DNA of 64,000 nt from Patescibacteria group bacterium UBA5147 (lineage in GTDB: Bacteria > Patescibacteriota > Saccharimonadia > UBA4664), in NCBI GenBank assembly GCA_002415345.1, contig DHXV01000001.1, forward strand, positions 136,305 through 200,304. The letters run 5' to 3'. The position numbers were made by a program, and so were the translations under genes. The stretch's first letter is position 1. Every line of letters begins with the position of its first letter. The notes beneath the pieces were generated by a model. The model saw nothing but the letters and a program-made list of their open reading frames with translations, was not told where the DNA came from and did no database searches. Below, one piece after another: positions 2,112 through 60,988 of the stretch.

Positions 2112-2112
2112 A

Positions 2113-2811: not shown

Positions 2812-2876
2812 GATAACTGAGAAACCACTGAATCCCGTCGGGTCCGGGCTTGGAATAAGGCGACCCGGAACTTATA

Positions 2877-10350: not shown

Positions 10351-10399
10351 ATTAGCATTAGCGTATTATAAAAATACCCTAAAAACCAGAGTAGCAACT

Positions 10400-14834: not shown

Positions 14835-16111
14835 GCGGTAGCCTTGGTGCAAATCGGGCATTCGTCTTGACGCTTGTTGTCGAGACCCCACACTCTTAGG
14901 GCGCGGGACAAGCTTTCGATATCAGTATACCCGATGAAATCACCCACCCGACGCAGTAACCAACCCAGGTAACCATAAACGTGCAGCTTGCCGTGTTCGA
15001 CGGCCGCCCAGCCGTTGCCAACCGGTATGACACTGGTTGGAGTCTTCTGCCTATAAGTTTTGCGTTTCCCGCCGGCCAGTTTGCTGGCGATATCGGCGGC
15101 AACAAACCTGGCATCGGCGACCGCCGTTTCGGCCGAACCGCCATGAGGCATGGCGGCGTTATCGCCAATCACGTAAAGGTCCGGTCCGGCTTCCATAAAC
15201 TCATTCACCTCCACTCGGCCATTTTTGGCTAGCGTAAAGGAGTCGGCGTTGTTGCGGAAAAACGGATTATTTGCCACTCCGGCCGTCCACACCACGGTTT
15301 TGGTCGTGATGGACTCACCTTTGAGCTGGAGCCGGTCGACGGTCTCACCCTCGACGACCGCGCCGGTCATCACGTGGACGCCCAGCTTCTCCAACCGTTC
15401 CTGGATTCTCTTGGAGTGAGCTTCGCTTGAACGGGGCAACAGACGCGGGGCCGCCTCAACCAGATCAATCCGGTACTTGGGCGCCGAGACGCCGTGCAGG
15501 GCCACGATGCGCTCCATGTATTCGCTGAGGGCTGATGACAGCTCAATGCCGGTGGGGCCGCCGCCGACGATGACATAGTGGAGTTCAGGCTTGTGGCCCT
15601 TAATCAGCTGGTCGTGAAGGTGTTGCTTGAATTCCATGGCGTCGCCGATGGTCTTGATGCCGTAGGAGAATTTGTCGAGTCCCGGGATGCCGAAATAATT
15701 GGTGACGCTGCCGGTCGCTAAAATCAGCTGACCGTAAGGGTAAACCTCGCCGGATGCGCCGGTTACGGTATGGGCCGCGGTATCAACCAGGTTAATAGTA
15801 TCAACGATGATTTTAACCTTGGTGTCGGACAGTAACCCCACCAGCGGGATAGAGGCTTCGGCCCGGGAACCCCCGGTAGCCGCATGATAAAGCTGCGGAA
15901 AATAAGCGAAGGTGTCGGTAGCAGAAATGAGCGTTACGCTCAAGCCTGCTTGGTGGCCGAGGCTTAGGGCGGCGCGAACTCCGGCGAACCCGCCGCCAAC
16001 GATGATGATGTGCTGCCTGGTTGCGGCGGATGGGATGGTTGTCATTAGGTTAATCATAAGCAATATGACAGATAACGTCCAGCCGGGAGCTGCAGGTCGG
16101 GCGGGTTGCAT
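14831..16111 (-). CDS. ndh: Type II NADH:quinone oxidoreductase (NDH-2), FAD/NAD-binding
   Basis: N-terminal dinucleotide-binding site IIIVGGGFAGVRAA and a second GG motif (YVIVGGGPTGIE). The start may be the internal M (MINLMTT..). Confidence 0.8.
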   Translation of the reverse strand: MQPARPAAPGWTLSVILLMINLMTTIPSAATRQHIIIVGGGFAGVRAALSLGHQAGLSVTLISATDTFAYFPQLYHAATGGSRAEASIPLVGLLSDTKVKIIVDTINLVDTAAHTVTGASGEVYPYGQLILATGSVTNYFGIPGLDKFSYGIKTIGDAMEFKQHLHDQLIKGHKPELHYVIVGGGPTGIELSSALSEYMERIVALHGVSAPKYRIDLVEAAPRLLPRSSEAHSKRIQERLEKLGVHVMTGAVVEGETVDRLQLKGESITTKTVVWTAGVANNPFFRNNADSFTLAKNGRVEVNEFMEAGPDLYVIGDNAAMPHGGSAETAVADARFVAADIASKLAGGKRKTYRQKTPTSVIPVGNGWAAVEHGKLHVYGYLGWLLRRVGDFIGYTDIESLSRALRVWGLDNKRQDECPICTKATA

Positions 16112-16182
16112 TCGGTTTTGCTATCAGAGCTGATATAGTTGTTTCATAATGCTTAGCTTTATCTCAAGATTATCGGCAACCA

Positions 16183-17043
16183 ATGAATAAAACCAATAAG
16201 GTGGCTCTGGTCGTCGTGGCCGGGCTGGCGGCAGTCGCATCAATTTTCTTGGTGCTTCATGGCAGCGATCTCACCATCCTCAATCCCAAAGGCCCGATTG
16301 CCGAAAAACAACGCAATCTAATACTGTTTGCGGCGCTGCTTAGCGTCATCGTCGTCATTCCGGTATTTATCCTCACTTTTACCATTGCTTGGAAATACCG
16401 CGCCGGGAACGTGGCCGCTCGTTATACTCCGGACTGGGATTATAATGCCAAGTTGGAAGTCGTCTGGTGGGGTATCCCCTGCGCCATTATCCTGGTGCTT
16501 AGCGTCGTCACCTGGCAGAGCTCCCACGACTTGGATCCGTATAAGCCCCTGGCGGGGTCGGCTAAGCCGATTACCATCCAGGTGGTGGCCTTGCAGTGGA
16601 AATGGCTGTTCATCTATCCGGATCAACAGATCGCAACCGTCAATTACGTTCGGTTCCCTGCTGGCACGCCCGTAAATCTTGAGATTACCGCCGACGCGCC
16701 CATGAACTCGTTTTGGATTCCGGAATTGGGCGGGCAAATTTATGCAATGCCTGGCATGTCCACCGGGTTGCATCTGATGGCCGACTCCGCCGGTAGCTAT
16801 CGGGGGTCATCCGCCAACCTCAGCGGCCGCGGCTTTGCCGGAATGAGATTCGTGGCCGAATCCACCACGCAAGCCGACTTTGACCGCTGGGTTTCCGAAG
16901 TTAGAACGTCGCCGAACCACCTGGACAGCGTCAGTTACGCCAAACTCCAGGAGCCGAGCGAAAATAATGCCCGTACCACTTATGCGACGGCTCAACTGGA
17001 TCTCTATGATAAGGTGATAACCAAGTACATGAGGATAGAATAA
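16183..17043 (+). CDS. cyoA: Quinol oxidase subunit II (CyoA-type, lacks CuA cysteines)
   Basis: Signal peptide/TM plus 2 TM. The cupredoxin region ([18 protein letters not shown]) lacks the CxxxC CuA ligands, consistent with a quinol rather than cytochrome c oxidase. Confidence 0.8.
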
Positions 17044-17047
17044 ATAT

Positions 17048-19021
17048 ATGCTGGGTAAACTAACCTTTGACGCCCTGCCGCACGACCCGATTGTTATCGG
17101 CGGAGCCGTTACCATGGTCCTGGCGATAATCGGCATAATTGCCCTTATCACCTTCCTCAAACGATGGCGGTGGCTGTGGCGTGAATGGCTCACTTCCGTC
17201 GATCCGAAAAAGATTGGCGTGATGTATATCGTGGTCGCCGTGGTCATGTTGCTCCGCGGCGTCATGGATGCGGCCATGATCCGGGCGCAGCAGGCATTAT
17301 CGGTTGGTAGCGCGCACGGCTTCTTAAACTCCGACCACTTCCAACAGATTTTTTCCGCCCACGGCACCATCATGATTTTCTTCGTCGCCATGGGCCTGAT
17401 GTTCGGCCTGATCAACCTGATTGTGCCGCTGCAAATCGGCGCCCGCGACGTCGCCTTCCCGTTCATGAACTCCGTCAGCTTCTGGCTGTTTGCGGCCGGC
17501 ATGGTACTGGTGAACCTGTCGCTGGCCGTGGGAGAGTTCGCCGCCGCCGGCTGGCTGGCCTACCCGCCGCTGTCGGAGTTGGCCTACAGCCCGGGGGTCG
17601 GGGTGGATTATTGGCTGTGGAGCATTCAAATTGCCGGCATCGGCAGTTTGCTGTCCGGGATCAACTTTTTGGTGACGATTCTCAAACTGCGCTGCCCCGG
17701 AATGACGCTGATGAAGATGCCGGTTTTCGTGTGGAGCGTCCTGGTGACAATGGTGATGGTTATTTTCGCCTTCCCTATCCTCACGGCCACGCTCGCCATG
17801 CTGGCGCTGGACCGCACGCTGGGCATGCACTTCTTTACCTCCGGTTTCGGCGGCAATCCCATGATGTACGTCAATCTGATCTGGGCGTGGGGTCATCCGG
17901 AAGTCTACATCCTGGTGCTCCCGGCCTTCGGGATTTACTCGGAGGTGGTGGCGACCTATTCCCGCAAGCGCCTGTTTGGCTATACCTCCATGGTGGTGGC
18001 GCTCATCGCCATCGCTTTCCTGTCGTTCATCGTCTGGCTGCACCACTTCTTTACCATGGGCGCGGGAGCGGACGTTAACGCCTTCTTTGGCATCATGACC
18101 ATGGTGATTGCCATCCCCACCGGCGTTAAGGTCTTCAACTGGCTGTTCACGATGTTCCGCGGCCGGGTGCATTTCAACACCCCGATGCTCTGGTTCATGG
18201 GCTTTGTCACCACCTTTACAATTGGCGGATCGACCGGAGTGCTAATGGCGGTGCCGGCCATCGACTTCCAGATGCATAACAGCCTGTTCCTGGTGGCCCA
18301 CTTCCACAACATGATTATCGGCGGCGTCGTGTTCGGCTATTTTGCCGGCATTACCTACTGGTTCCCTAAGATCTTCGGCTTCAAGCTCAACGAGCGGCTG
18401 GGCCGGTACGCTTTCTGGTGTTGGATCATCGGCTTTTTACTAGCCTTCGTGCCGCTCTATATCCTGGGCATCATGGGCGCCACCCGACGTCTGGACCACT
18501 ACGATGCCTCCATGGGCTGGCAAGGTCTGTTCGTCGTCGCCGGCGTCGGCGTCATGGTGATCCTGCTGGGAATCGGTTTCCAGGTGTTGCAGATGGTGGT
18601 CAGTATCGTCCAGCGCAGGCAGAACATGGATACCACCGGCGACCCATGGGACGGCCGCACCCTGGAATGGTCCACGTCATCGCCGGCACCGTTTTATAAC
18701 TTCGCCATCACGCCGGTTGTCTCCGGACGTGACCCGTTCTGGGCGGCCAAACAGGCCAAGACGCCTGTGCCGACCAACCGCGTCTACGCCGATATAAACG
18801 TACCTAAGAACACGCCGATGGGCCTGATTATCGGCGGACTTAGTTTCCTGGCAGGCTTTGCCGTCATCTGGCACATCTGGTGGCTCGCCGCCTTGGGCCT
18901 GGCCGGCGTTATCCTGAGCTTAATTATCCGCCTGTCCGACGACGATTCCGAATACATTATTTCGGCAGCTGAACTTGAAAAACTGGACCGGGCAGCGGCC
19001 AAAGGAAGGAAATTCGCATGA
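17048..19021 (+). CDS. cyoB: Heme-copper oxidase subunit I (cytochrome bo3 quinol oxidase CyoB-type)
   Basis: 657 aa with conserved motifs [17 protein letters not shown] and HHFFTMG. Confidence 0.95.
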
Positions 19022-19614
19022 CCAGCCTAGTCGCCCCCATCGAAACCGCCCGCATCGAATCGGACGAAAAAACATTGCTCGGTTTCTGGGTCTACCTCAT
19101 GACCGACTGCATCCTCTTCGGCAGCCTGTTTGCCACCTATGCCGTGTTGCACAACAACACCTTCGGCGGGCCCGCCGCCAGCCAACTGTTCAGCCTGCCC
19201 TATGTGTTGGGTGAAACTGTGGTCCTCTTAACTTCCAGCTTCACGGCTGGTTTGGGAATGCTGGCAGCGCACCGCCAGAATAAAAACCAGGTGGTGGTCT
19301 GGTTCAGCGTTACCCTGCTGCTGGGAGCCGCTTTCCTTACCATGGAGCTCACCGAATTTTCCAGACTGATCGCCGACGGCAACAGCTGGCAGCGGAGCGG
19401 CTTCTTGTCGGCGTTCTTCACGCTGGTCGGTACGCACGGCCTCCACATCGCCACCGGCCTCCTGTGGGGCATGGTCCTGCTAATTCAAGTGGCGCGGCGC
19501 GGGCTGGTGCGTGCGACCGTCCGTCGGTTGATGCTGCTGAGTCTGTTCTGGCATTTCCTGGATATCATCTGGATACTGATTTTCTCCATCGTCTTCATGA
19601 TGGGGGCATTATGA
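19018..19614 (+). CDS. cyoC: Quinol oxidase subunit III
   Basis: 198 aa, 5 TM, GTHGLHI motif; overlaps the cyoB stop by 4 nt. Confidence 0.85.
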
Positions 19615-19988
19615 TAAAAATCACTCCGCACGGAACGCTCCTGTCCTACGTCAGTGGCTTCGTGTTTTCGCTCGCGCTCACGTTGACCGTGTTCGTCTTG
19701 GTCAACAACCATGTCACAAGCGGCCACGCGGCTTACTCACACGGCTTTTTGGCCCTGGTTATCATGGGCCTGGCCGTCGTGCAGCTCATCGTTCAATTGG
19801 TGTTCTTCCTGCACCTGGGCGCGGAAGCCAAGCCGCGCTGGAATCTGGCAGTCTTTCTATTCATGATGGTGGTCCTAGTGGTCATTGTCGGCGGGTCACT
19901 GTGGATTATTAATAACCTCAACTACCACATGCTGTCCCCCCAGGATACGAATTCCTTCATCATGAAGGATGAAGGAATCCACCGTTAA
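19610..19988 (+). CDS. cyoD: Quinol oxidase subunit IV (small 3-TM subunit)
   Basis: ATG overlaps the cyoC stop (ATGA). 126 aa, 3 TM. The listed longer ORF 19464-19988 is an upstream extension in the same frame. Confidence 0.6.
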
Positions 19989-20851
19989 TGCGGGACGCCG
20001 TCAACACCTACTACCAGCTAACCAAGCCCGGAATTATTTACGGTAATGCGCTGGCTGCCATCGGCGGGTTTCTCCTGGCGTCAAAGGGCCATTTCGATGT
20101 CCTGTTGTTCGCGGCGATGCTGACTGGCTCCTCTCTGGTGATAGCGTCCGGCTGCGTCTTCAATAACTATTTGGACCGGGAAATTGATGCCCATATGGCG
20201 CGTACCAAGAAGCGGGCGCTGGTCAGTGGGCGGGTGTCCGCACGCAACGCCATCATCTACGCGACCCTGCTGGGTCTGGTTGGCTTCACGGTGCTAGCGA
20301 CCTACACCAACCGGTTGACCGTCGCCATCGGGCTCGTCGGTATTGTCTTTTACGTCATAGTTTATGGCTTCGCTAAGCGGCACTCTGTCCATGGCACTCT
20401 GGTGGGCACGATATCCGGTGCGACGCCGCCGGTGGCCGGTTATTGCGCCGTGACAGGGCGGCTTGATCTGGGAGCTGTGTTGCTTTTTCTGATTCTGGTC
20501 TTCTGGCAAATGCCACATTTTTACGCCATTGCCATGTACCGGGCCAAAGATTACGCCGCAGCCAAGCTGCCGGTGCTGCCAGTAGTTAAGGGTGAGCAGA
20601 TAACCAAAATCCAGATGCTGGTTTACGTCATTGGCTTCATGCTAGCGACGGCCCTCCTGACTGGCTTCGGGTACACCGGCTACGTGTTCCTAGCGGTAAT
20701 GACGCTGATTGGACTTATCTGGCTCAAGTCCAGCCTCCAGGGATTCACAGCCCCGGACAGCAACCTATGGGCTCGCAAAATGTTTAAATTCTCCCTGGTT
20801 GCACTGGTGGTATTCTGCCTGATGATATCCGTAGATAACGCTTTGGCTTAA
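19988..20851 (+). CDS. cyoE: Protoheme IX farnesyltransferase (heme O synthase)
   Basis: UbiA-family motifs NNYLDREIDAHMARTKKR and WQMPHF; start overlaps the cyoD stop (TAATG). Confidence 0.9.
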   Translation: MRDAVNTYYQLTKPGIIYGNALAAIGGFLLASKGHFDVLLFAAMLTGSSLVIASGCVFNNYLDREIDAHMARTKKRALVSGRVSARNAIIYATLLGLVGFTVLATYTNRLTVAIGLVGIVFYVIVYGFAKRHSVHGTLVGTISGATPPVAGYCAVTGRLDLGAVLLFLILVFWQMPHFYAIAMYRAKDYAAAKLPVLPVVKGEQITKIQMLVYVIGFMLATALLTGFGYTGYVFLAVMTLIGLIWLKSSLQGFTAPDSNLWARKMFKFSLVALVVFCLMISVDNALA

Positions 20852-26929: not shown

Positions 26930-28402
26930 TCAACGAGGAGCGTGGCGGCTCAGCAATACAAGGTTATCCTGGACCCGCTGGAGTAGGGTTGGAACCATAT
27001 CTAGCAGGCGGATTTCGGTCGGCAGCTCGCGGCCGGGGAACATCTGTCCGTAGGCCTGAGGCGAACCTGCGGACATGGCCACCTGCACCTCCAACAGATC
27101 GATTGATGCTAAATGAAGGGACTCCCCGGACAATGGCCCGCCCTTGACAGGGCCATTGCGAAAAGTAATCGGCTCCCCAGCGAGGAGCCGGAAGGGCATG
27201 CTAAAGCTGCTTAGGAGTCTCAATACCCCACTGCGCATGGTCATGATCCAGGTAGTGCAGCCATCATCAATCGAATCAAGCACTACCTTACCTAGTAGAC
27301 TTAGGAGGGCAAGTTGCCGTTCTGACGACCCTACAAGCATCGGATCAAGTGCCAGCCGTGAGATTTCTCGGTGCTGAGTTTTGTCGATATCGGCTGGGAG
27401 CGGGGCAAAGGTCTCCGCTTGATGGCCGAGCAGTTCGGAGTGCCCAATCAGGCGGGCCGATCCAACCACTTGGCCTTGATCGTCCGAAACGACGTACAGG
27501 GCGCAATCGGGACTAGTATCAAACTCGTCGTGAGGCACGCCGGACTGTCCAACCGGGCACTCCATGAGGCCGGACTCGCAGTAGGCAGCGTGCCGAATAC
27601 GTAAAGCCGCGGCGCGATCCTTGGCTGTGAGTGCCTCTCTGGCTCTGTAGGCGTAGACGCGACGGGCTTTGATAAGCCAGTTCTGGTCACCGTAGGTCTT
27701 TTTAACCTCCTGAACAACCCAGCCCGAGTCCGCAAACCATGTTTCGATGTCCTTCTCGGTAGCAAAATGGTAGGGCCCGGCCTCACCGAGCAGCTTGATG
27801 ACGAGATTGATGAGGTAAACCACGAACAGCGACAGGAAAATCCTGCGTGTATGCGCCGGCTTGTTCTGCTCGCGGGCAAGCCTGCCATGAACTCGCAGTA
27901 TCTCCAGCGGCTTGGCGCCGGCGCGAGGCGTTGATACCAATAATGTGGCGCCGGATTTCGCGATGCCGGCCGCATGTTTGAGCGTGGCGTGAGGATCGGC
28001 GGTCGCGTACAAGCTGTTGACCATCACTACGTAGTTGAATGGCCCCCCAATGCCCTGCTCGGGGAGCGAGGCGTTCAGGTCGGCGCTCAAGAAGCTGACA
28101 GCGTTTCCGCACTTTTTACTGGCCCGCGTCAGCATCGACGGCGAAGAGTCTACGCCCGTTATGGCGCATTCAATTCCACGGTTAAGGATTACCGATGGTA
28201 GATTGCCGGTGCCGCAGCCCAAATCAACTATCTTGGCCGAACCTGTCAGGTTAAGAAGATCGACGGTTTCATCCAACATCGTCTGGTACGGAATAAGTTT
28301 CCCTATCCCGTCGTAAAACTTCGCATAGATTCCCCATAAGCAACGATTAAGCATCATTGACTCATTTCTATCGACACTGTGGGTATTATGGGCATAGTAC
28401 AA
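26930..28402 (-). CDS. Fusion protein: N-terminal class I SAM-dependent methyltransferase + C-terminal GNAT-fold (N-acyl-amino-acid/autoinducer-synthase-like) domain
   Basis: SAM motif I VDLGCGTGNL in the N-terminal half. The C-terminal half has a GNAT-like pattern (YVVSDDQGQVVGSARL...REISRLALDP). Confidence 0.55.
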   Translation of the reverse strand: MYYAHNTHSVDRNESMMLNRCLWGIYAKFYDGIGKLIPYQTMLDETVDLLNLTGSAKIVDLGCGTGNLPSVILNRGIECAITGVDSSPSMLTRASKKCGNAVSFLSADLNASLPEQGIGGPFNYVVMVNSLYATADPHATLKHAAGIAKSGATLLVSTPRAGAKPLEILRVHGRLAREQNKPAHTRRIFLSLFVVYLINLVIKLLGEAGPYHFATEKDIETWFADSGWVVQEVKKTYGDQNWLIKARRVYAYRAREALTAKDRAAALRIRHAAYCESGLMECPVGQSGVPHDEFDTSPDCALYVVSDDQGQVVGSARLIGHSELLGHQAETFAPLPADIDKTQHREISRLALDPMLVGSSERQLALLSLLGKVVLDSIDDGCTTWIMTMRSGVLRLLSSFSMPFRLLAGEPITFRNGPVKGGPLSGESLHLASIDLLEVQVAMSAGSPQAYGQMFPGRELPTEIRLLDMVPTLLQRVQDNLVLLSRHAPR

Positions 28403-29389: not shown

Positions 29390-29686
29390 CTAGTAGCGAC
29401 GGTCGCCGCCGCCGAAGCTCTGGCGAGGACCACGGTCTTCCTTAGGCTTGGCAATGTTGACGACGATAGTACGCCCGTCGACTTCTTTGCCGTTGAGACC
29501 GTCGATTGAAGCCTGTGCTTCCTGGTCGGTGCTCATCTCAACGAAAGCGAAACCCTTTGAACGGTTGGTGTCGCGGTCCATGATGACGGCGGCGCTGACG
29601 ACTGTGCCGTAAGCGGCAAACAGATCTTTGAGCTGGTCTTCGTTAACGTTAAAACTTAATGATCCGATGAATAGCTTTGCTGCCAT
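29390..29686 (-). CDS. RRM-type RNA-binding protein with Gly/Arg-rich tail
   Basis: RNP2 (LFIGSLSF) and RNP1 (KGFAFVEM) motifs; C-terminal RGG-like tail; 98 aa. Confidence 0.85.
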   Translation of the reverse strand: MAAKLFIGSLSFNVNEDQLKDLFAAYGTVVSAAVIMDRDTNRSKGFAFVEMSTDQEAQASIDGLNGKEVDGRTIVVNIAKPKEDRGPRQSFGGGDRRY

Positions 29687-29996
29687 ATATGTATCTCCTT
29701 ACCCAGAACTCTTTAATGTGCTCCGGAATAAGATTGTGGCGAGCCGCTGTGGGAATAGCGGCTAAACGAAATCGACAAGTTTATAGCTTGTTTCTAGATT
29801 GTAATGATTATAGCACAATTGATCCGTTTTGTCATTCGTTCGTACCCGAAGCCCTAATTTACGGCTGCGCTGCGTCTACCTCGGCCCCGCTCTGAATCAC
29901 CTCTGCGGCTTTGTATGTAAAAGCAGGCCAGATATTATATGAGCTTGATATCACCCAGAACAACAATTAGCACGAAGCTAACTTCCTCAACCCGAG

Positions 29997-30374
29997 CTAC
30001 TTCTTTGCTGCTTTCTTAGCTTGATTATAGGCTATAGCAGAACGAATGAGAGTCTTTAGCGATTCCTCATTGATTCTATCGCCTTCAAAGTATTTGATGG
30101 CTCGTCTCTGGTTACCTGCAAGTTCGTCGTTGAATATATTATCCGGGTCCGGCAGGCTCGCACCGTACAAAAAGCCGAGCTTTACACTGGTATTAAAAGC
30201 CATTCCAACCGCTATGATCCCATCATGCGACCAAACAGGCGAACCCATCCACTTCCATTCCTCTACTACCTCGGGGTCAGCCTCGTGAAACAGTTGGCGA
30301 AGCCGGGCCAACGCTGGTCCACGCCAATCGGTGAGACCTGCTATCAGACTATCGATCTTTTCGGTCGGATTCAT
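29997..30374 (-). CDS. DUF1801 (YdhG-like) domain protein
   Basis: 125 aa with the typical ...WKWMGSPVWSHDG... core. Confidence 0.7.
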   Translation of the reverse strand: MNPTEKIDSLIAGLTDWRGPALARLRQLFHEADPEVVEEWKWMGSPVWSHDGIIAVGMAFNTSVKLGFLYGASLPDPDNIFNDELAGNQRRAIKYFEGDRINEESLKTLIRSAIAYNQAKKAAKK

Positions 30375-30465
30375 AAAGTCACACCTCCACAGGCGGTCAG
30401 CTTATGAGTTTTTTATTCATTTGTTTATTATACCAAACAAAATGACCCATACTGACCTTTTTAAA

Positions 30466-30510
30466 CATAAGTGCTATGGAGGGCCATCGTGCTTGCTGTT
30501 GCAATTGAAA
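30466..30510 (-). repeat. tRNA-Lys 3'-end-derived direct repeat, copy R1
   Basis: Minus-strand reading is CAATTGCAACAGCAAGCACGATGGCCCTCCATAGCACTTATGTTT. It starts at the stop codon of 30511-31068 and has no terminator hairpin. Confidence 0.8.
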
Positions 30511-31068
30511 TTAGTTTTCTAACCCAATTATTCTAACAATCTCATCAATTTCAACTCTTTTCGGAGTATCTATATTAATTACCTTACCGATTTGTAGTGC
30601 TGCATATTTATCGGGGTCTTCCGGAGCCGCATTTTCTAGATAATTTTCGCGGTCAGCATGCCCAATGTGACGCTCACCCGACTCATTGCGGCCTATGAAT
30701 CGCTGTTTTCTAGTCTCAAAATCGGTTGAGCAATATATCTCAATTACGTTCGGCTGATATCTTCCAATAAGTTCTTGCAGTCTCGGCTGGGCAAAAGATC
30801 TTTCAAATGCATTTTCAATCATCACCGATTGGCCAGCCGCCATCATGGTTTCTGCCAAGGTATATACAAAATCGTTGGATACTTTTCCGAGAGTTCTTGA
30901 CCATTCCCTATCATTGATACCTAAGTTATCAAATAGAAATTCTTTAATCGTGTCTTTAGCGATCAGGGGTATGCCAAGCTTTGTCGATAACGGTTTGGCG
31001 ATTGTAGTTTTTCCAGAAGCGGGTAAGCCGTTGATAATAATCAAATTCATACGGATATCATAAAACAA
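30511..31068 (-). CDS. P-loop NTPase, small kinase-like (AAA_33/zeta-toxin-like fold)
   Basis: Walker A GLPASGKTT near the N-terminus; ~170-185 aa. The start may be the internal MNLII. Confidence 0.65.
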   Translation of the reverse strand: MFYDIRMNLIIINGLPASGKTTIAKPLSTKLGIPLIAKDTIKEFLFDNLGINDREWSRTLGKVSNDFVYTLAETMMAAGQSVMIENAFERSFAQPRLQELIGRYQPNVIEIYCSTDFETRKQRFIGRNESGERHIGHADRENYLENAAPEDPDKYAALQIGKVINIDTPKRVEIDEIVRIIGLEN

Positions 31069-31146
31069 AAAAGGCTCCCGGAGGAGTTTTTTTAAGCATA
31101 AGTGATATGGATGGCCATCGTAGTAGCTATTGCTACTGAATTACGG
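31067..31146 (-). repeat. tRNA-Lys 3'-end-derived direct repeat R2 plus terminator hairpin
   Basis: Core at 31092-31146 (..CAGTAGCAATAGCTACTACGATGGCCATCCATATCACTTATGCTTAAAAAAA) begins 25 nt after the stop of 31171-31674. Hairpin GGCTCCCGGAGGAG plus a T-run at 31067-31092. Confidence 0.8.
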
Positions 31147-31170
31147 ATACACCGAAGGCCAACTTCGCTG

Positions 31171-31674
31171 TTACGGGTGAGCATTTTCTCTTGTAAAGAA
31201 CGCGTATGACTCGGTGTTGTACTCTTTGAGTGGCCATACCGCCATCCCCTGCTCCTGCCAAAGCGCAAACTCTGCAACGCCCGCTTCCATCGTAAAACGA
31301 CTGCAAACTGTGCAATATGGTTCCCCGGCCTTCGTCAATTCCCCATCCCCATTCACACGCATAAAGTACAATCGCGAACCGGCCAGCTTATCGGGATTAC
31401 GTTTACTGGCATCTAACACGGCTCGCCACTCGGCATGAATACAGCAGGTTTTATCAAACAACGGCTTGAGCGTTTGGGTGTACTCACGTGAGCAAGTTCG
31501 GCTAGCTTCATCATCAAGCGGCGGCCCGTTGTAGCCTTCGCCGATAATCACCCCATCGCTTACGATGACCGAGCCGCAGCGTGCCTTTAGGCACTTGGCC
31601 TGGCGCGCAATTCGAGCAGCTTCGTTAAACCAGTTTTCTGCATCTTTGACTTCGTTTTCGGCAAGAAACTTCAT
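31171..31674 (-). CDS. CMP/dCMP-type zinc deaminase family protein
   Basis: HAE zinc/catalytic motif (CCIHAEWRA) and PCxxC (PYCTVCS); N-terminal GSVIV..GEGYN. The listed ORF start at 31761 reads through the repeat/terminator; the real start is MKFLAE at 31674. Confidence 0.65.
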   Translation of the reverse strand: MKFLAENEVKDAENWFNEAARIARQAKCLKARCGSVIVSDGVIIGEGYNGPPLDDEASRTCSREYTQTLKPLFDKTCCIHAEWRAVLDASKRNPDKLAGSRLYFMRVNGDGELTKAGEPYCTVCSRFTMEAGVAEFALWQEQGMAVWPLKEYNTESYAFFTRENAHP

Positions 31675-31692
31675 TAAGTAATCATAGCAAAC

Positions 31693-31773
31693 AAAAAAGA
31701 CCTCCGAAGTAGTCTTTTTAAGCATGAGTGCGATGGAGGGCCATTGTGCTGGCTGTTGCAACTGAAACTACTG
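31693..31773 (-). repeat. tRNA-Lys 3'-end-derived direct repeat R3 plus terminator hairpin
   Basis: Core at 31719-31773 (CAGTTGCAACAGCCAGCACAATGGCCCTCCATCGCACTCATGCTTAAAAAG). AAAAGAC...GTCTTTT hairpin at 31693-31719. Confidence 0.8.
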
Positions 31774-31965
31774 ATTTCAGAGCATTTATCGCTCAGCTAG
31801 GGTAGGTTGCAGGGACGAATATCGTTATCAATACATTCCTTAAGTTCCTGTATTTGTACAAACTGCTTATAGTCATTCGTATATACTGGTTACGCTTATA
31901 ATGATCCAAATCCCAAATTTGGATGACATCCGGCAAATTGGCTAAAGCTAAGCTCATGATATCCT

Positions 31966-32631
31966 TTGCATATGAACGATCAACTATCGCGATACCAGGC
32001 TTTCGAAACATTTAAAGAGGTGCCACGCATCGACGTGAAGCGCTGCTTTGTTGCGGCACAATATTTTGGGACCTTGGAGCGCGGGAATACTCGCTATCTA
32101 CCCAAGTTGACGCGCCAAGATTTTGTTGATCGGCTGCAAACTTCAAAAGATTATGCTCAAACAATTCTTGAACCAGAACTGGATGAGAGAATTTTGGAGG
32201 GAAACTATCCAAAACGGTTGAAGATGTATAACGCGTGTACCTGGTATATAGGTGTGGTATTCGCCGATGAAGTTGGAGTATGGAAAGGCGCGGGCGGCCT
32301 CCCAGTGGCCTGGACGTACGGTTCTTTGGAGGATACGGCACGCTATGTGAGCCATGCCCTCCGGAGCAACGAAACGATACTCCCTGCACGGGCTAGGCGC
32401 GTGATACCCCGCATCACCCTTAACCTCAATCTTATTGAACAGGAGCCTTATCTTTATCCAATCATTGCCCCTGGAGCAACTATGGGCCGCGGTCTCAATG
32501 GACGCCCTTACACCCACTTTGAGCTCATGAATGGTGATATTGAGGATGGCTGCATGCGCTCGATTGCCTTGGCTCATCAGGGGCGGTCAAAGTTTCTTGC
32601 ATATGTTGGAATGAAAAATATAAAAAAATAA
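31966..32631 (+). CDS. Hypothetical protein (221 aa), plus-strand gene inside the cassette array
   Basis: Long ORF with no recognised domain, convergent to its neighbours. Followed by hairpin TAACGGCTCTACAGAGCTGTTA at 32628-32649. Confidence 0.45.
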   Translation: MHMNDQLSRYQAFETFKEVPRIDVKRCFVAAQYFGTLERGNTRYLPKLTRQDFVDRLQTSKDYAQTILEPELDERILEGNYPKRLKMYNACTWYIGVVFADEVGVWKGAGGLPVAWTYGSLEDTARYVSHALRSNETILPARARRVIPRITLNLNLIEQEPYLYPIIAPGATMGRGLNGRPYTHFELMNGDIEDGCMRSIALAHQGRSKFLAYVGMKNIKK

Positions 32632-32704
32632 CGGCTCTACAGAGCTGTTATTTCATAATGATTCCTGGAGGCCATCGTAGATGTTACCGCAACTAAAATT
32701 TGCG
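32628..32704 (-). repeat. tRNA 3'-end-derived direct repeat R4 (chimeric Lys/His type) plus bidirectional hairpin
   Basis: Minus reading: TAGTTGCGGTAACATCTACGATGGCCTCCAGGAATCATTATGAAATAACAGCTCTGTAGAGCCGTTATTTTTTT. The tail matches the flank of tRNA-His at 47925-47965. Confidence 0.7.
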
Positions 32705-33004
32705 AAGCAGCAGAGTAACTACTATTCCCAGCTCAATAATAAATAGCGGTATGTACGTAATTACTAATGGCTTTTCTTTATGCTTGACGCTGAATATTGC
32801 GAATATGCCAGCTTGCAATGCATAGAAAGACCACGTAACCAGAGACACTCCCTGTAAGTTACTCGCTGTTACGACGTTATAGAGCTGGGGCAGGGTAACT
32901 ATAGGCATACAAATGCCTACTACTGTGGTGAGTTTGTCTAGGTTCTTATTTTGAGTTTTTCTTATATACATTGCCCACAGTATAGCAAACAAAAAGGCTC
33001 CCAA
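32693..33004 (-). CDS. Small membrane protein (103 aa, TTG start)
   Basis: 3 predicted TM helices; repeat R4 begins at its stop codon. Confidence 0.4.
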   Translation of the reverse strand: MGAFLFAILWAMYIRKTQNKNLDKLTTVVGICMPIVTLPQLYNVVTASNLQGVSLVTWSFYALQAGIFAIFSVKHKEKPLVITYIPLFIIELGIVVTLLLRKF

Positions 33005-33010
33005 GCGGAA

Positions 33011-33062
33011 GTCTTTTTATCATAAGTGCTATGGAGGGCCATCGTGCTTGCTGTTGCAACTG
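33011..33062 (-). repeat. tRNA-Lys 3'-end-derived direct repeat R5 (closest match to the tRNA flank)
   Basis: CAGTTGCAACAGCAAGCACGATGGCCCTCCATAGCACTTATGATAAAAAGAC; identical to R6/tRNA-Lys from GATGG to CTTATG. Confidence 0.8.
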
Positions 33063-33154
33063 GAATACAAACAAGTGCCCCCTCCATTTGCCAATTATAT
33101 AATCAAGTTTCAACTACCAGCGCAATCAACCTTTGATACCAATTTTTTGATATC

Positions 33155-33523
33155 TCAGAAAATAATCTCTTTACCATCTGGACAAACGAAGCCATATGGC
33201 TGGTGAGCCGTCAGGGCTTTCTTTAGTACATCATTGTATTGCGGATTGGAAGGGAAAACCGCTTTACGCATATCAGGAAACTCGAATATAAAAGGATTAA
33301 CATCATGGCGAATAGCTGGCTGGCCGCCACACTCAGAGACCGCCACGTTATATTTTCTATTTCGCTCCGCGCTGGTGTCTTTAATGTGGGAGTATACAAA
33401 TGGGCTCGATGCTACTGCTAAGATGAAAAGTAGAAAAAAAACTAGTGCACCCCAACCTGCCGGACGATGTGATAACTTCACTATCTCAGAAAATGTTGAG
33501 AGCCCACGTTTTGCCATTACCAC
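33155..33523 (-). CDS. Hypothetical secreted/membrane protein (122 aa)
   Basis: N-terminal hydrophobic segment; no recognised domain. Confidence 0.35.
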   Translation of the reverse strand: MVMAKRGLSTFSEIVKLSHRPAGWGALVFFLLFILAVASSPFVYSHIKDTSAERNRKYNVAVSECGGQPAIRHDVNPFIFEFPDMRKAVFPSNPQYNDVLKKALTAHQPYGFVCPDGKEIIF

Positions 33524-33560
33524 TATGGTACGACAAAACGTGGGCCAAGGCTATTCAGCC

Positions 33561-35834
33561 CTAGGAAACGGCGGCCAAGACGAGACCTGCGATGTCAACT
33601 TGTCCTTGGGCGCTTGGATGCGGATACCCGAAATATCTTGTTTGCTGGAGGTCATCGATAGGACTCGTTGATAAAGTGCCCGAACTCCGTAAATCAACGA
33701 CTATCACCCCACTGGATGAAAGTGGCGTAATGTAGCCAGTGTCGAGGTAATCGATGACCTCGTTTGCCCCTTCATGTGGGGCCGTTGTAGAATCGTGATC
33801 CGCGCACGTACTAGTGCTGTTCATTATGTGCGGATACGTAATAACGACCTTTCTCACGGCCGGATCTTGAATCGATGCGGCAGTGAACAATCCCGATAAA
33901 GCCGTCGGCGAGGTGGCTAGAAAAGTCGTCAGGTTAGCCTTAATTGTGTCCGTGTCGGGACATTGACCTCTCGTTGTCTCTAGCCACGGTTTGGCATTCA
34001 GGTCGACTGAGTCTACCGAGAATTGAACGTAATAGTTCGTCAAAGCGTCTGCAAAATTAATGTCATCGGCACCCCCATCTGCCGATACGACGTTCCACGA
34101 TCCTGCGAATGCAGAGAGTATGTTTTCCATCTCTGACTGTTGACCACATCCAGGGCATCCTGTCGATGCTGTCGAAGGGAAGTCTGCAGACTTTGCCCCG
34201 CTCATAGCATAGACGTACGCCGTCATCTGCCATCTGACCGGAACGCTCCTTTCCGTGTTGAATTGGTCAACGGCCCTGCTGGGCCACGAAAATGAAGCAT
34301 CGTTTGGATCTAATGCGGGAGCGGTAGTTCGGTCTATACATGTCCCCGAGTAGTCTCCGTTCAACGAATATGCGAGCTGAGCGTAGACATAACCAGCATA
34401 GTTACATGGCTCATCCAAAAACTGATTGTGGCCACTGGAGTAGCTATCGCCAGCCGCAACCCAGACGGGTGCGAAAGGTGTTATGTAACTTCCAGTCCCC
34501 TGAGTGCCTAGTCCATTTGCATCAATGACCACGGCGTTAGAGATATATACGTTGTTAGGCTCCAATGGAAGCACACTAACTCCAACCTTGATAGAGCTAG
34601 GGGCGGTTCCACCTGAAATGCAGATACTTTTTGTCGTACTAGCCGCACCAACTGAAACGGCCACACTTGCAGGACAAGAAACGCTACTGAGGCCAACCGT
34701 AACATCCACATCATAGAAATGCGTGGCGTTCGTGACAGCAGAAGTAACGCTGCTCACACTTGCCGAAGATGAGCTATAGACGCCGCTGATTTTGTATAGC
34801 AAGCCATAGTAGTTCGCACCAATATAGACGTTGCCGAAACCATCAAGGGCGAGGCCAGGAGCGCCTCCAAAGACGTTGGCCGGATTGGTGACTGTTCCAT
34901 TTGAGTCGATCCTATATACAGCGCCACTAGAGCCTCCACCGACAAAAATGTTGCCTGCATTATCAGCATCTACTGCGTAGGGCGATGATGCCAGAGTTGC
35001 AAACGTTGACATTATGCCGCTTGAGTTCACAACCTTTATTAAGCGATTGCCTGTATCAGAGATATAGACTTTGCCATCCGCGTAAACAGCACCATTAGCG
35101 TAGCTGAGGCTAGATGATGTAGCTACACCAGTAGTGTTACCTTGATAACCATTACCCGCAACAGTTGATATCACACCATTGACGTTGATTTTGCGAATAC
35201 GGAACTGGCCTGAGTCTGCGATATACAGTTCTTTTGTCGCATCGTCATAACTGAGATTACCAAGGCTACCGAGTCGAGCAGACGTTGCAGCAGCGCCGTC
35301 ACCAACGTCAGTTGGATCATTTGGGTTATGCGTGGAAGTATAGTACTGACCAGCATAAGTCGTTATGACCCCGGCAGGATTAACTTTGCGAACAAGGTGA
35401 TGACTTGAGTCGGCAATGAATACCGTTCCATCTGAAGTCACAGCAACACCCGACGGCTGAAACAGATTTGCTCCTGTTGCGGGGCCACCATCCCCTAGAT
35501 TGGTGGCGCCTGCGGTGGCGCCGTTGCCGGCAAACAACGAAGTGTTTCCAGTTGAAAGCTCGACTTTGCAAACAACATTATGGTTTTCGTCCGCAACATA
35601 TGCATACCCATTGTGACCAATTGCTACAGCGGAACCCTTATTGAAGACGACAGACGTCCCTGAACGAATGGTAGAATCACAAGTTACGCCTGTGCCAATA
35701 GAGTTTCCGGCTACGACGGTGATAGTAGAGGCATTTGCAGTTTGGCTTACAAGCGTGAATAATGCACTTACCAAAACTATGGCAGTTGAAAACGCAAAAA
35801 CTCGATGTTTAGTGCATCCTCGAATGATGTTCAT
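33561..35834 (-). CDS. Secreted NHL-repeat beta-propeller protein with C-terminal SGNH/GDSL-hydrolase-like domain
   Basis: Signal peptide. Repeated NHL-like units (VAVTSDGTVFIADSSHHLVRKV, LYIADSGQFRIRKI, VYISDTGNRLIKVV). A C-terminal GDS(x)G block is present (WVAAGDSYSSGHNQF). Confidence 0.6.
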   Translation of the reverse strand: MNIIRGCTKHRVFAFSTAIVLVSALFTLVSQTANASTITVVAGNSIGTGVTCDSTIRSGTSVVFNKGSAVAIGHNGYAYVADENHNVVCKVELSTGNTSLFAGNGATAGATNLGDGGPATGANLFQPSGVAVTSDGTVFIADSSHHLVRKVNPAGVITTYAGQYYTSTHNPNDPTDVGDGAAATSARLGSLGNLSYDDATKELYIADSGQFRIRKINVNGVISTVAGNGYQGNTTGVATSSSLSYANGAVYADGKVYISDTGNRLIKVVNSSGIMSTFATLASSPYAVDADNAGNIFVGGGSSGAVYRIDSNGTVTNPANVFGGAPGLALDGFGNVYIGANYYGLLYKISGVYSSSSASVSSVTSAVTNATHFYDVDVTVGLSSVSCPASVAVSVGAASTTKSICISGGTAPSSIKVGVSVLPLEPNNVYISNAVVIDANGLGTQGTGSYITPFAPVWVAAGDSYSSGHNQFLDEPCNYAGYVYAQLAYSLNGDYSGTCIDRTTAPALDPNDASFSWPSRAVDQFNTERSVPVRWQMTAYVYAMSGAKSADFPSTASTGCPGCGQQSEMENILSAFAGSWNVVSADGGADDINFADALTNYYVQFSVDSVDLNAKPWLETTRGQCPDTDTIKANLTTFLATSPTALSGLFTAASIQDPAVRKVVITYPHIMNSTSTCADHDSTTAPHEGANEVIDYLDTGYITPLSSSGVIVVDLRSSGTLSTSPIDDLQQTRYFGYPHPSAQGQVDIAGLVLAAVS

Positions 35835-36046
35835 TTCGACTTCCTTAACCGGTCGGTACTGCGTTTCCCGACTCAGCCCCCTTCACTCACGGAAGCAAGT
35901 AGAGAGAGCTGATCGCGAACGCCATAAGGAGTATACCTTAAGTGGTAAGAATTATCCGTGATGTCGAATCGGCGTATTTTAGACTTACAAAATTTCGACT
36001 AATTTTCCACCTAGTTGAAAAGTTATTGAAACAACTTAGGCAAAAC

Positions 36047-36068
36047 AAAAAACCCTTACGGGTTTTTT
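36047..36068 (-). terminator. Intrinsic terminator after tRNA-Lys (AAAACCCGTAAGGGTTTTTT)
   Basis: Perfect 7-bp stem, GTAA loop and a T-run on the minus strand, 15-36 nt after the tRNA CCA end. Confidence 0.7.
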
Positions 36069-36082
36069 AAGCATAAGTGCTA

Positions 36083-36159
36083 TGGAGGGCCATCTGGGAT
36101 TCGAACCCAGGACACGGGGATTAAGAGTCCCCTGCTCTAACCAACTGAGCTAATGGCCC
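36083..36159 (-). tRNA. tRNA-Lys (anticodon CTT), CCA encoded
   Basis: Manual cloverleaf: acceptor GGGCCAT/ATGGCCC, D-arm GCTC-AGTTGGTTA-GAGC, anticodon arm GGGGA-CTCTTAA-TCCCC, T-arm CTGGG-TTCGAAT-CCCAG. Confidence 0.9.
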
Positions 36160-36229
36160 GAAATGTGAAACAGTCATAATCCTACCCGAAACAGCACTTT
36201 TAGGCAAGAACTATGAGGGGAATAATTAC

Positions 36230-36305: not shown

Positions 36306-36439
36306 ACATTGAGTTGTACGGACAGCGCAACTAAGTATTTATAGCAGATTTTAGCAACTTTGACTAGGATTGCGCATGATAACGACACTAATAATGCCAG
36401 CTCCGGTAGTTAACCGGAACTGGCATTTTTGGATAGGAG

Positions 36440-37903
36440 CTAGAGGTCGAAAATGTCCGTTTCCAGGCGTTTGACAGCCTCGATTCCGCTGATTGAGCCT
36501 CGGTTGGGGTTATCCAACTGCGATTGGATATCAGCGACCAGTTTGCCCCTCCACCCGGTTGCTGCGGCTGGGGCACTGGCCTGAGCGAGTACCGCCCGCA
36601 GGGCGGCCGAAACCGTCCACGCCTGCGTGCGCTCCGGCATATTGGTAGCGGCAACCGCGCGTTGGCCGCTGGCCATCTCCGGCAGGTAAATAACTCGGCC
36701 ATCGGTATCGACGTACCAGAATTCGTAGCACTGGCGCGACTTGTTGATGCCGTTAAGGATGCGGTCTTCAATCTCTTCCGCGAGCGGAGCCAGGCCCTGG
36801 CGGCGCAACCCCCGTGCAAAGAAATTGGAGTTGACCGCCCATGAGACTTTGGCGCCCTGATAGTCCCAGTACGGCACTAAACTGGCATATTTGAGTCCGC
36901 GCATCCGTAGGCCGACGTCGGTGATAAACTCCGAACTGAACATTTTCCCGACGATGCTCGAGACATACGACTGCGTTTCACTCTCTGGGAGCCCGTCGAA
37001 CAGCCGGGTATCGAGCAACTCCGCCGGGAGAGAGGTGGCCGTTCGAACAAGCCGGGGCAGTGCGCCAACGGCCGGACGATCCAAGGCCATAGCAAAGCTT
37101 TGGCGATCAGGCATCCAGAATTGTTCGAGCGTGGTTTGGCGCAGGGTGGCGGCCTGGTCAAGCCACCGGGGGCAGTTAGCATGGTCCGGAAAGAGCTCCG
37201 CGCCATCCAACAAGGCGTCATACGCCAGACCCTGGACCTCGATTGAAGCCATGGGCGCATCGGGGTTAGCCAGCGAACCGTCCTCGTGCAGGTACGACGT
37301 TTGTCCGTCGCGCAATCCCTGATAGCCATGGCCACGCGGGTTGGTACGACAGAATTCAAGCAGTCCAAGCTCACTGGCGGCGATCCGATGGCTCAACCAG
37401 GCCAACGCCGACAGGGCTGACTCCGCGAGTGTGGTAATGGTACCGTCGCGGCGGACAATCCGCGTCGCCAGGACCTCCGGTCCGTGGTGCCTGACGTGAG
37501 CTGCTATTAACCGGACGAACTGTGGGGTCGCATCGACCGTACCGTAATAACAAAGCTCACTTTCGGTGCCGCCCCACTTCGCCGCCAGCTCATGCAAAAT
37601 AGCGGCTTGGTCCGGTCCGATGAGTTCACCGCCGATAATCAGGTTGCGGTACTCGTGGTGAATCCGGCCCGGCTCTTCCTCCGAAATAGAGTTGGCTTGT
37701 TCGCCCTGCAATCTGGACAGCGAGATGAGAATGCGAGCCGAGAGCGCGGGGTAGTACGGTACCAGGTCGAGACCCACAATGAGGCTGTCGCGCCCAAAAA
37801 TCGCCCATTTGAAGAGCTTGTAGTTGGACGCCTGAATGCCGTCCAGCGTAATGACGCTCATGAGATCGCCGAAAAGTCCCGGCAGTGTCGCATACGGGCG
37901 CAT
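36440..37903 (-). CDS. Amylo-alpha-1,6-glucosidase / glycogen-debranching-enzyme C-terminal-domain family protein
   Basis: 487 aa (alpha/alpha)6-barrel-like sequence (..YYGTVDATPQF.., ..EFWYVDTDG..). Locally GC-rich relative to the surrounding window. Confidence 0.55.
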   Translation of the reverse strand: MRPYATLPGLFGDLMSVITLDGIQASNYKLFKWAIFGRDSLIVGLDLVPYYPALSARILISLSRLQGEQANSISEEEPGRIHHEYRNLIIGGELIGPDQAAILHELAAKWGGTESELCYYGTVDATPQFVRLIAAHVRHHGPEVLATRIVRRDGTITTLAESALSALAWLSHRIAASELGLLEFCRTNPRGHGYQGLRDGQTSYLHEDGSLANPDAPMASIEVQGLAYDALLDGAELFPDHANCPRWLDQAATLRQTTLEQFWMPDRQSFAMALDRPAVGALPRLVRTATSLPAELLDTRLFDGLPESETQSYVSSIVGKMFSSEFITDVGLRMRGLKYASLVPYWDYQGAKVSWAVNSNFFARGLRRQGLAPLAEEIEDRILNGINKSRQCYEFWYVDTDGRVIYLPEMASGQRAVAATNMPERTQAWTVSAALRAVLAQASAPAAATGWRGKLVADIQSQLDNPNRGSISGIEAVKRLETDIFDL

Positions 37904-38010
37904 GGAATCGGTCCTTCCGACGAGTAGGGAGATTGGTTTTCAAGGTATGGGGCTACTATAGTACGAAATATACCGAATACAAGCCAAATTAATCTAAAAA
38001 TAATTGCTCT

Positions 38011-55773: not shown

Positions 55774-55779
55774 TAAACC

Positions 55780-57000: not shown

Positions 57001-57096
57001 GTATTGCAAATAATACCTATTTGTGCTATAATGAGAGATTGGACCATCCTACGCATCCGCGTGTGAGCCAAGTACCCGCTCTGAGAGGAGCATGAT

Positions 57097-57678: not shown

Positions 57679-57767
57679 CCCCATTCCCACCCACGACCCC
57701 TCTGGCACATTGCCGGAGGGGTCGGTTTCGTTGTTGGCCTTTTGAGGGTGAAATGAGGATAAGTATA

Positions 57768-57797
57768 TTGACACCGTAACCACAAGCACTTTATAGT
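57768..57797 (+). promoter_or_regulatory. Sigma70-like promoter for the pilin gene (TTGACA-18 nt-TATAGT) with an overlapping 6-bp inverted repeat CCACAA..TTGTGG
   Basis: Seen directly in the sequence ~70 nt upstream of the GTG start; the strong SD AAGGAGGTG lies 7 nt before the start. Confidence 0.45.
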
Positions 57798-57868
57798 TGT
57801 GGTACATAGAGCTCAGGGCTTTATCCAAAGGTTTCGTCTATCCCATCAATATAAGGAGGTGAGCACTC

Positions 57869-58312: not shown

Positions 58313-58385
58313 GATTGACTTCCTAACTAAAAACGACCCCCAAGCGGGGTCGTTTTTAGTTAGCGTAACCGTTATAATACAATCT

Positions 58386-59473: not shown

Positions 59474-59474
59474 C

Positions 59475-60950: not shown

Positions 60951-60988
60951 AGTGATACAATATTCAAAATGGCTATGGTTATAATACA

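Follow-up and report, generated by a model that had tools for sequence, protein, structure and literature searches.

Integrons, including chromosomal super-integrons and integrase-less attC clusters, are long co-oriented arrays of mostly one-gene units in which a repeat stands at the 3' end of each unit and moves with the upstream gene, in which small enzymes and toxin-antitoxin pairs make up the cargo, and whose contents are fully different between close relatives. These traits recur in the locus described here, which lies at positions 29838-36160 of a 64-kb stretch of DNA (the window; contig DHXV01000001.1) from a Saccharimonadia bacterium, a member of the candidate phyla radiation, and which is best explained as a highly variable array of cassettes that has the 3' end of the tRNA-Lys(CTT) gene as its anchor. 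However, the array has neither intI nor attI and is anchored on a tRNA gene, its repeat is a sequence-conserved element of about 37 nucleotides (nt) without a conserved hairpin whereas attC is conserved in structure, and its units appear to carry their own terminator and promoter whereas integron cassettes mostly have no promoter and depend on a single one (Pc) at the head of the array.

Islands that target tRNA genes are a second point of comparison. In the tycheposons of Prochlorococcus, tandem tRNA integrations occur and degenerate partial tRNAs are scattered in the island (bioRxiv 10.1101/2020.12.28.424599). As in these islands and those of the Islander catalogue, an intact tRNA is followed here by direct repeats of its 3' end, and the likeness extends to scattered partial tRNAs and to a layout in which successive insertions would displace older material away from the tRNA. 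Such islands are, however, kilobases long and contain an integrase or fragments of one, whereas the units here measure about 0.4-1 kb, no integrase was found in any of 18 such loci, and every repeat has a conserved arm that does not derive from the tRNA. The identity block here is confined to the tRNA 3' end and so agrees with one of the sublocations of integrase crossover that Williams reportedly described in 2002. Modules moved by Xer recombinases (the pdif modules of Acinetobacter and dif-integrating elements) are likewise small, have short sites, depend on a recombinase that they do not encode and form arrays through repeated integration at one chromosomal site, but the site here is a tRNA end and not dif, and the repeats here are direct whereas pdif sites alternate in orientation. 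A dif site measures 28 nt, with an 11-nt XerC arm and an 11-nt XerD arm on either side of a 6-nt centre. Part of the flank of our repeat, TTATGCTTAAA, presumably resembles the XerD arm of dif, although imperfectly; the flank spacing shifts by 2 nt between flank types, and the left arm would be the tRNA end, which is not dif-like. The related idea that the array lies at the replication terminus was abandoned, the cumulative G-C skew having only a weak and unconvincing local maximum near 28 kb. In the tRNA-linked repeats of E. coli, such as the 178-bp repeats after tyrT, the last ~19 nt of the tRNA are repeated downstream; those are tandem duplications of the same content, whereas the DNA between the copies here is unrelated. 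SSV-type archaeal integrases capture genes and have their att site inside the integrase gene (PMC7253208). Elements here are likewise trapped beside tRNA genes, tRNA segments are repeated and the arm is open in antisense in almost all copies, but the coding signal is weak, the peptide has no match and no integrase halves flank the units. Full-text searches aimed at this question turned up no account of an array of this kind from Saccharibacteria or Patescibacteria.

Each repeat consists of a conserved non-tRNA arm of 25 nt, which we named the P-arm, the 12-nt end of the tRNA (the core) and a looser flank. Positions within it are numbered relative to the CCA end, negative numbers lying on the 5' side in the tRNA sense. 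In the window, the tRNA-Lys gene and its repeat copies are as follows.

36083-36159, minus strand: tRNA-Lys(CTT), found by ARAGORN and scored at 70.2 bits by Rfam.
36083-36094, minus strand: repeat core in tRNA-Lys, its last 12 nt (GATGGCCCTCCA), common to every copy.
36036-36082, minus strand: tRNA trailer with type-1 flank TAGCACTTATGCTTAAAAAA, then hairpin CCCGTAAGGG and T-run; fold -13.2 kcal/mol, z-score -3.1.
32972-33068, minus strand: R5, with P-arm 33044-33068, core 33032-33043 and flank 33013-33031.
32624-32702, minus strand: R4, degenerate, with P-arm 32677-32702 and core 32666-32676; nhmmer score 48 bits.
31675-31770, minus strand: R3, with P-arm 31746-31770 and core AATGGCCCTCCA 31734-31745, then flank, hairpin and TATGAT box.
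31051-31144, minus strand: R2, with P-arm 31120-31144 and core GATGGCCATCCA 31108-31119, then flank, hairpin and TATGAT box.
30458-30513, minus strand: R1, with P-arm 30489-30513, core 30477-30488 and flank 30458-30476, then TATAAT box.

The 31-nt core plus flank GATGGCCCTCCATAGCACTTATGCTTAAAAA was matched with at most 3 mismatches at 30458, 31089, 31715, 33013 and 36064, always on the minus strand, where 100 shuffles gave a chance expectation of 0.00. Outside this single co-oriented array the repeat was absent from the 64 kb, and the 3' ends of the other six tRNAs of the window are each present only once. What is found is the arrangement known from tRNA islands, an intact tRNA with its 12-nt 3' end repeated five times in the same orientation. 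The dispersed, both-orientation pattern of REP-type repeats or miniature transposable elements was seen neither in the window nor in the related loci. Stable hairpins with T-runs lie 3' of the tRNA, R5, R4, R3 and R2 (stability is given as fold z-scores, here -1.8 to -3.3), and R1 has no hairpin (z = +1.7). The flank of R5 leads to a hairpin, a T-run and a TATACT box whose end lies 7 nt 5' of the ATG. The core of R4 is one C short (GATGGCCTCCA), its flank is of type 2, a different variant, and its hairpin is so positioned that it could terminate the convergent plus-strand gene as well.

An earlier interpretation of this DNA, made from the letters alone (the sequence-only reading), had reported five downstream copies of the tRNA-Lys(CTT) 3' end and flank, with a hairpin and T-run after all but R1; the coordinates, the counts, the chance expectation of zero and the fold z-scores all agree with this. 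The worry it had raised, that the motif is a generic intergenic repeat, is not borne out: both the window and all related loci have it solely in co-oriented arrays, which lie downstream of tRNA-Lys(CTT) wherever a tRNA falls within the fetched stretch. Two of its boundaries had to be redrawn. The shared extension of 19 nt, which is matched at R1, R3 and R5 and has diverged forms at R2 and R4, is too short, the conserved arm being about 25 nt (-36 to -12). The array that it placed at 30466-36160 is there, but the variable segment extends over 29838-36040 and includes a DUF1801 gene.

Related loci (cited below by L numbers) were obtained from an exact-pattern scan of one genome per species, which yielded nine Saccharimonadia assemblies, from a metagenome scan, which added six contigs, and from look-ups of neighbour and cassette proteins, which added L026, L033, L034 and L035. 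Exact-pattern scans overlook diverged repeat copies; the count of P-arm-bearing copies is defined by a repeat profile (nhmmer). Two places reached through the glycoside-hydrolase-like neighbour (L036 and L037, ~50% identity) were rejected because the gene there does not adjoin the tRNA cluster, and two reached through a deaminase homologue (L028 and L029) because they are without a tRNA-Lys array. The profile finds 36 P-arm copies in 18 Saccharimonadia loci, spaced at a median of 689 nt (range 169-3051), and in each locus the copies are co-oriented, in the same sense as tRNA-Lys wherever tRNA-Lys lies in the fetched stretch.

When the copies are aligned on the CCA, a block of about 37 nt from -36 to 0 has high information content, and conservation is lost 5' of -38, where the unrelated 3' ends of genes start. 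On the other side of the core, the looser flank usually gives way to a putative terminator hairpin and a -10-like box, behind which stands the ATG of the following gene. The type-1 flank is TAGCACTTATGCTTAAAA, followed by a variable hairpin; the type-2 flank is type 1 minus 2 nt with the hairpin AATAACGGCTCT...AGAGCCGTTATT; and further flank variants are present. The hairpin is kept although its stems vary from copy to copy. After the T-run stands a TGnTAT(G/A)AT-like box, 6-8 nt 5' of the ATG, and this suggests leaderless transcripts. Examples in the window, without a Shine-Dalgarno sequence, are at 32972-32990, 31675-31695 and 31051-31070, others are at 8520-8555 and 9225-9250 of L030, and such boxes precede both cassette and non-cassette genes, a recurrence which suggests that leaderless mRNAs are common in this lineage. 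A generic consensus promoter scan gave nothing above chance.

Within the conserved block, positions that never vary (T-27, G-25, C-24, A-22, A-34, A-13 and C-12) are interleaved with randomised ones such as -17 (C11 G10 T6 A6), and this interleaving argues that the P-arm is under selection and is a protein-binding motif rather than a young duplicate. RNAalifold found no consensus structure on either strand among 34 distinct copies (energies 0.0 and -0.09), so the repeat is unlike attC sites, which are imperfect palindromes (R''-L''...L'-R') that form hairpins as single strands; an attC-like or tRNA-like fold was also set aside because Rfam returns only true tRNAs. The core contains a partial dyad, ACGATGG-CCCT-CCATAGC, which scores best when centred at -4.5 (6.0 out of 12, where the median of other centres is 2.85) and has the layout of a simple recombinase core site. 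Descent of the P-arm from a tRNA T-arm or D-arm was rejected after comparison by eye, in which the invariant positions proved unrelated, although there is a partial by-eye likeness to the D-arm (TCAGTTGG). P-arm lineages or subtypes are shared across genomes: P-arm identity is 0.635 within loci, barely higher than the 0.589 between them, and the nearest relative of the R2 P-arm is in another genome (copy 190 of L016, 92%).

In almost every copy the arm is free of stop codons when read antisense to the tRNA, giving (M)LWRAIVxA(V/I)ATE(I/V/L)(R/Q) with substitutions that look synonymous (30477-30513, 31108-31144, 31734-31770 and 33032-33068 in the window; L003, L009, L016 and others). A coding role was rejected: pN/pS (the ratio of nonsynonymous to synonymous change) is 0.68, which does not stand out from the 0.61-0.75 of two opposite-strand frames, the open reading frames (ORFs) terminate after 17-36 codons, and a peptide search gave no protein match. 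The signal might be chance, or it might echo an attP-overlapping gene of some autonomous element yet to be discovered.

The genes of the array, with family assignments from a Pfam report restricted to families with E <= 0.01, are listed below in order from the tRNA.

33155-35834, minus strand: unit 1, two genes, an NHL-repeat protein and a 120-aa ORF (gene calls in L019).
33561-35834, minus strand: 757-aa NHL-repeat protein of unit 1 (Pfam).
33155-33517, minus strand: 120-aa ORF of unit 1, no family match.
32693-32971, minus strand: unit 2, 92-aa predicted three-helix membrane protein, no Pfam match.
31972-32631, plus strand: unit 3, 219-aa ORF, no family match.
31171-31674, minus strand: unit 4, 167-aa dCMP/cytidine deaminase (Pfam).
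30511-31050, minus strand: unit 5, 179-aa P-loop kinase, AAA_33/cytidylate-kinase-like (Pfam).
29838-30374, minus strand: probable sixth unit, DUF1801 protein (29997-30374; Pfam) with a 160-nt tail.

The NHL, deaminase and kinase identities proposed from the letters are borne out by Pfam, whereas the proposed SGNH domain has no Pfam match at E <= 0.01. DUF1801 is counted as a probable unit because in L008 its gene stands between two repeat copies and because it lies within the variable segment of the window; its distal end has no intact repeat. Across loci the cargo comprises small enzymes (kinases, NUDIX and HIT proteins, deaminase, APH, methyltransferase, glyoxalase), DUF1801 and toxin-antitoxin pairs, an integron-like spectrum. 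The G+C content of the segment is 0.43-0.51, against 0.53-0.59 in the flanks.

Turnover of the array is evident from L033, which belongs to a sister species. It encodes, adjoining the tRNAs, a 77%-identical copy of the 487-aa glycoside-hydrolase-like protein of the window and is syntenic on both sides: window 38153-36041 corresponds to L033 9754-11862, spanning tRNA-Lys with its flank and terminator, so that the tRNA-Lys trailer is kept, and window 29837-26908 corresponds to L033 14443-17368, from the promoter of an RRM gene onward. These flanks are 81-87% identical. The two anchors enclose 6.2 kb of window sequence and 2.6 kb of L033 sequence, which share no gene: NHL protein, 120-aa ORF, the protein with three transmembrane helices, the 219-aa opposite-strand ORF, deaminase, kinase and DUF1801 in the one, and NUDIX, one intact P-arm copy, OmdA, HIT and a 206-aa ORF in the other. 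L035 has another gene set again. The fixed distal border in both the window and L033 is the gene for an RRM-domain RNA-binding protein (29390-29686) with its conserved promoter and 5' leader (29687-29837). Cassette contents are nearly all different among genomes, and the units of an array have unrelated DNA between their repeat copies. Single-gene units, a repeat at the 3' end and contents that vary among relatives are the organisation of an integron.

Three cassettes are found again in the arrays of other genomes, but in a different place. Counted from tRNA-Lys, the deaminase gene comes fifth in the window; it stands directly after tRNA-Lys in L002 (~90% nucleotide identity) and is the second cassette, after an APH kinase, in L026 (protein 80% identical). 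L016 has a SnoaL-like gene as its second unit and a BrnT/BrnA pair as its third; in L008 the SnoaL-like gene is unit three, and in L009 the BrnT/BrnA pair is unit one. Both the variation of the locus among relatives and the shuffling of individual cassettes, which the sequence-only reading had proposed to look for, are thereby found.

These repositioned units also locate the breakpoint. Between R3 and the tRNA junction of L002, the flank, hairpin, promoter and deaminase are homologous (the tRNA trailer of L002 matches the R3 flank and hairpin), whereas left of the core the P-arm stands against the tRNA T-arm; likewise, the flank of the BrnT/BrnA unit is homologous between L016 and L009, and left of the core is P-arm in the one and tRNA body in the other. 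Because homology lies right of the core and P-arm faces tRNA left of it, the breakpoint is placed at the core. The sequence after the deaminase is GCAATAGCTACTAC in the window and GCAATAGCCACTAC in L026, and because the gene keeps the same P-arm subtype in both, the P-arm is assigned to the upstream gene. Just after the deaminase stop there are core-like remnants, eroded in the window (31146-31170, GTTGGCCTTCGG) and also present in L002 (about 3600-3660, GTTGGCCCGCCGGCAATTATTCGTAAAATAACGG) and L026 (5105-5141), which look like the trace of a lost unit. In L034, L005, L013 and L006 the contigs end exactly at the tRNA-Lys CCA or within the core, which makes the array a recurrent assembly breakpoint; either repeats or population heterogeneity would account for such breaks.

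Taken as a tRNA-anchored recombination hotspot, the locus would work as follows. In the tRNA sense, a unit consists of a flank of ~17 nt, usually with hairpin and -10-like box, then one gene or sometimes two, the P-arm and the 12-nt tRNA end. Conservative site-specific recombination in or beside the 12-nt core, between the tRNA or an internal copy and a circular cassette that bears a P-arm-core-flank junction, would add, remove and reorder units, giving the order core, incoming flank with terminator and promoter, gene, incoming P-arm, core. The P-arm would be the binding site of the recombinase, moving with the upstream gene like attC, and the gene for the enzyme would lie at some other place in the genome or on a separate replicon. 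Because the predicted terminator and promoter-like box adjoin the junction, an inserted gene would be insulated and expressed at once. We give a probability of roughly one half to the proposal that the cassette array was built by site-specific recombination at an attachment (att) site in the tRNA 3' end with a recombinase acting in trans, a rating held at that level because nothing of the recombination reaction itself was observed. More tentatively, and with the balance somewhat against it, Saccharimonadia may own an undescribed integron-like gene-capture platform, in which one-gene cassettes with their own terminator and promoter would enter and leave the 3' end of tRNA-Lys(CTT) through a sequence-defined att element of ~37-54 nt (P-arm, tRNA end and flank), with a recombinase encoded elsewhere. 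Of the likeness to integrons first suggested from the letters, the organisation stands; there is neither an adjacent integrase nor a conserved hairpin, each cassette appears to have its own terminator and promoter, and the recombination itself we infer.

Several observations weigh against recombination by an enzyme in trans. No tyrosine or serine recombinase was found in the window by Pfam, precomputed annotations or reading of the translations, and no recombinase or integrase fragment near the arrays in about 15 related loci, as had been noted for the cassettes of the window from the start; specifically, neither an intI adjoining the first cassette, as in integrons, nor an integrase within the element, as in tRNA islands, was present in the window or related loci. 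A phage or plasmid source of the element was discarded after three scans of viral contigs gave 0 matches and phage and plasmid collections gave only chance matches, and no terminal overlaps indicative of circular cassettes were found among short metagenome contigs. A large element upstream of the lone copy in L010 was also considered and rejected, the 6.9 kb there holding only metabolic genes. Same-species sampling, in which an identical neighbouring protein occurs on 13 contigs and seven places were fetched, gave 100% identity over the shared sequence, with no recent gain or loss. An age gradient is absent, as R1, the copy farthest from the tRNA, most resembles the tRNA copy; many copies are eroded (R4, a copy near 4170 of L026 and the remnants after the deaminase); and there is no intact copy at the distal end of the array. 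In L030/L031, a Saccharimonadales relative, tRNA-Arg(CCG) is followed at 8420-10510 by kinase, SET-domain protein and deaminase with neither tRNA-Lys nor repeats, the kinase being 38% identical to that of unit 5. Because kinase and deaminase stand there without repeats, part of the cargo may be old, and this arrangement may be an eroded or ancestral form of the array. Finally, the window and L033 share the post-tRNA flank and hairpin and diverge beyond, so not all turnover took place at the tRNA core. Serial insertion at the tRNA-Lys 3' end, as the sequence-only reading had it, agrees with the repeats of the tRNA end, but this shared flank and hairpin do not fit simple insertion at the core; whole-array replacement by homologous recombination in the flanks after natural transformation would be a possible route for turnover outside it.

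The same process might be held to explain the whole locus, transformed DNA being exchanged by RecA through homology of the repeat and the flanking genes, so that entire arrays or individual units would change hands with no site-specific enzyme involved. Natural transformation has been reported in Saccharibacteria, a type IV pilus set is encoded in the window, copies of different genomes have exact 30-nt matches, and the homology of the window with L033 breaks off and resumes outside the core, past the terminator on one side and ahead of the RRM promoter on the other, as whole-array replacement predicts. However, homologous recombination alone leaves unexplained how dozens of unrelated genes came to be joined to the same 25-nt arm at a fixed position and why invariant and saturated positions occur within the arm, and the arm identity of most copy pairs, only ~60%, is too low for efficient homologous exchange. 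As a sufficient explanation we consider it unlikely.

Still less weight is given to the array being a set of island relics, in which serial integrase-bearing insertions at the tRNA-Lys 3' end each left a displaced tRNA end and later lost the integrases and most other genes by deletion, down to single genes. Such insertions classically leave direct repeats of the tRNA 3' end behind an intact tRNA, tandem integrations with scattered partial tRNAs are known from the Prochlorococcus tycheposons, several repeat copies are eroded and the G+C content of the segment is below that of its flanks. Yet none of the 18 loci contains an integrase or a recognisable fragment of one, the units are uniformly tiny (median 689 nt), random deletion would not produce the same 25-nt arm with a sharp 5' edge behind unrelated genes, and arm positions that are randomised beside invariant neighbours point to selection on the arm; this origin is decidedly improbable.

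Very improbable is a regulatory module, that is, a transcription-unit boundary copied from the tRNA-Lys trailer and kept for its function with no role in recombination: the hairpins and T-runs after 4 of 5 copies and the tRNA, the retention of the hairpin while stems vary between copies, the TGnTAT(G/A)AT-like box 6-8 nt before the next ATG and the same promoter layout at repeat-less genes, for example in L030, agree with it, but P-arm plus tRNA end, the part with the strongest conservation, lacks a conserved fold on both strands and is situated upstream of the terminator, at a place that requires no known signal, the repeat occurs nowhere else in the 64 kb, and turnover and repositioned cassettes are left unaccounted for.

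Some features of the surroundings deserve mention. The 487-aa glycoside-hydrolase-like gene (36440-37903) lies between tRNA-Arg(CCG) and tRNA-Arg(TCG) (36306-38010); in most other Saccharimonadia loci the gap between these two tRNAs is ~80-560 nt, and the insertion is common to L033, L034 and L035. Beyond the distal border, 26930-28402 encodes a 490-aa fusion of a methyltransferase and a FeeM-like (N-acyl amino acid synthase-like) part, which is kept in L033 just past the array. A respiratory set at 14831-20851 comprises a type II NADH dehydrogenase-like flavoprotein, a UbiA-family haem O synthase-like gene and quinol or cytochrome oxidase subunits (I, II and others). A type IV pilus cluster, relevant to DNA uptake, occupies 53734-63128, with the PilB ATPase, PilC, PilM and pilins with the N-methylation motif recognised by Pfam, and PilN- and PilO-like genes by eye only.

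Bacteria of the candidate phyla radiation have very small genomes with few recognisable mobile elements, and their acquisition of accessory genes is poorly understood. The locus is a defined, recurrent hotspot at which nucleotide-salvage and detoxification enzymes and toxin-antitoxin pairs are replaced fully between sister species. It explains assembly breaks at tRNA-Lys in these genomes, its conserved 37-nt element is a simple metagenome probe for such arrays and their cargo, and for genetic work in Saccharibacteria it indicates a natural insertion site. Should a trans-acting recombinase be the driver of the array, this would be a second, independently evolved cassette system beside integrons, based on a tRNA end and on expression-ready cassettes, and if it is indeed such a platform, it would be a main route by which these reduced genomes exchange accessory enzymes.

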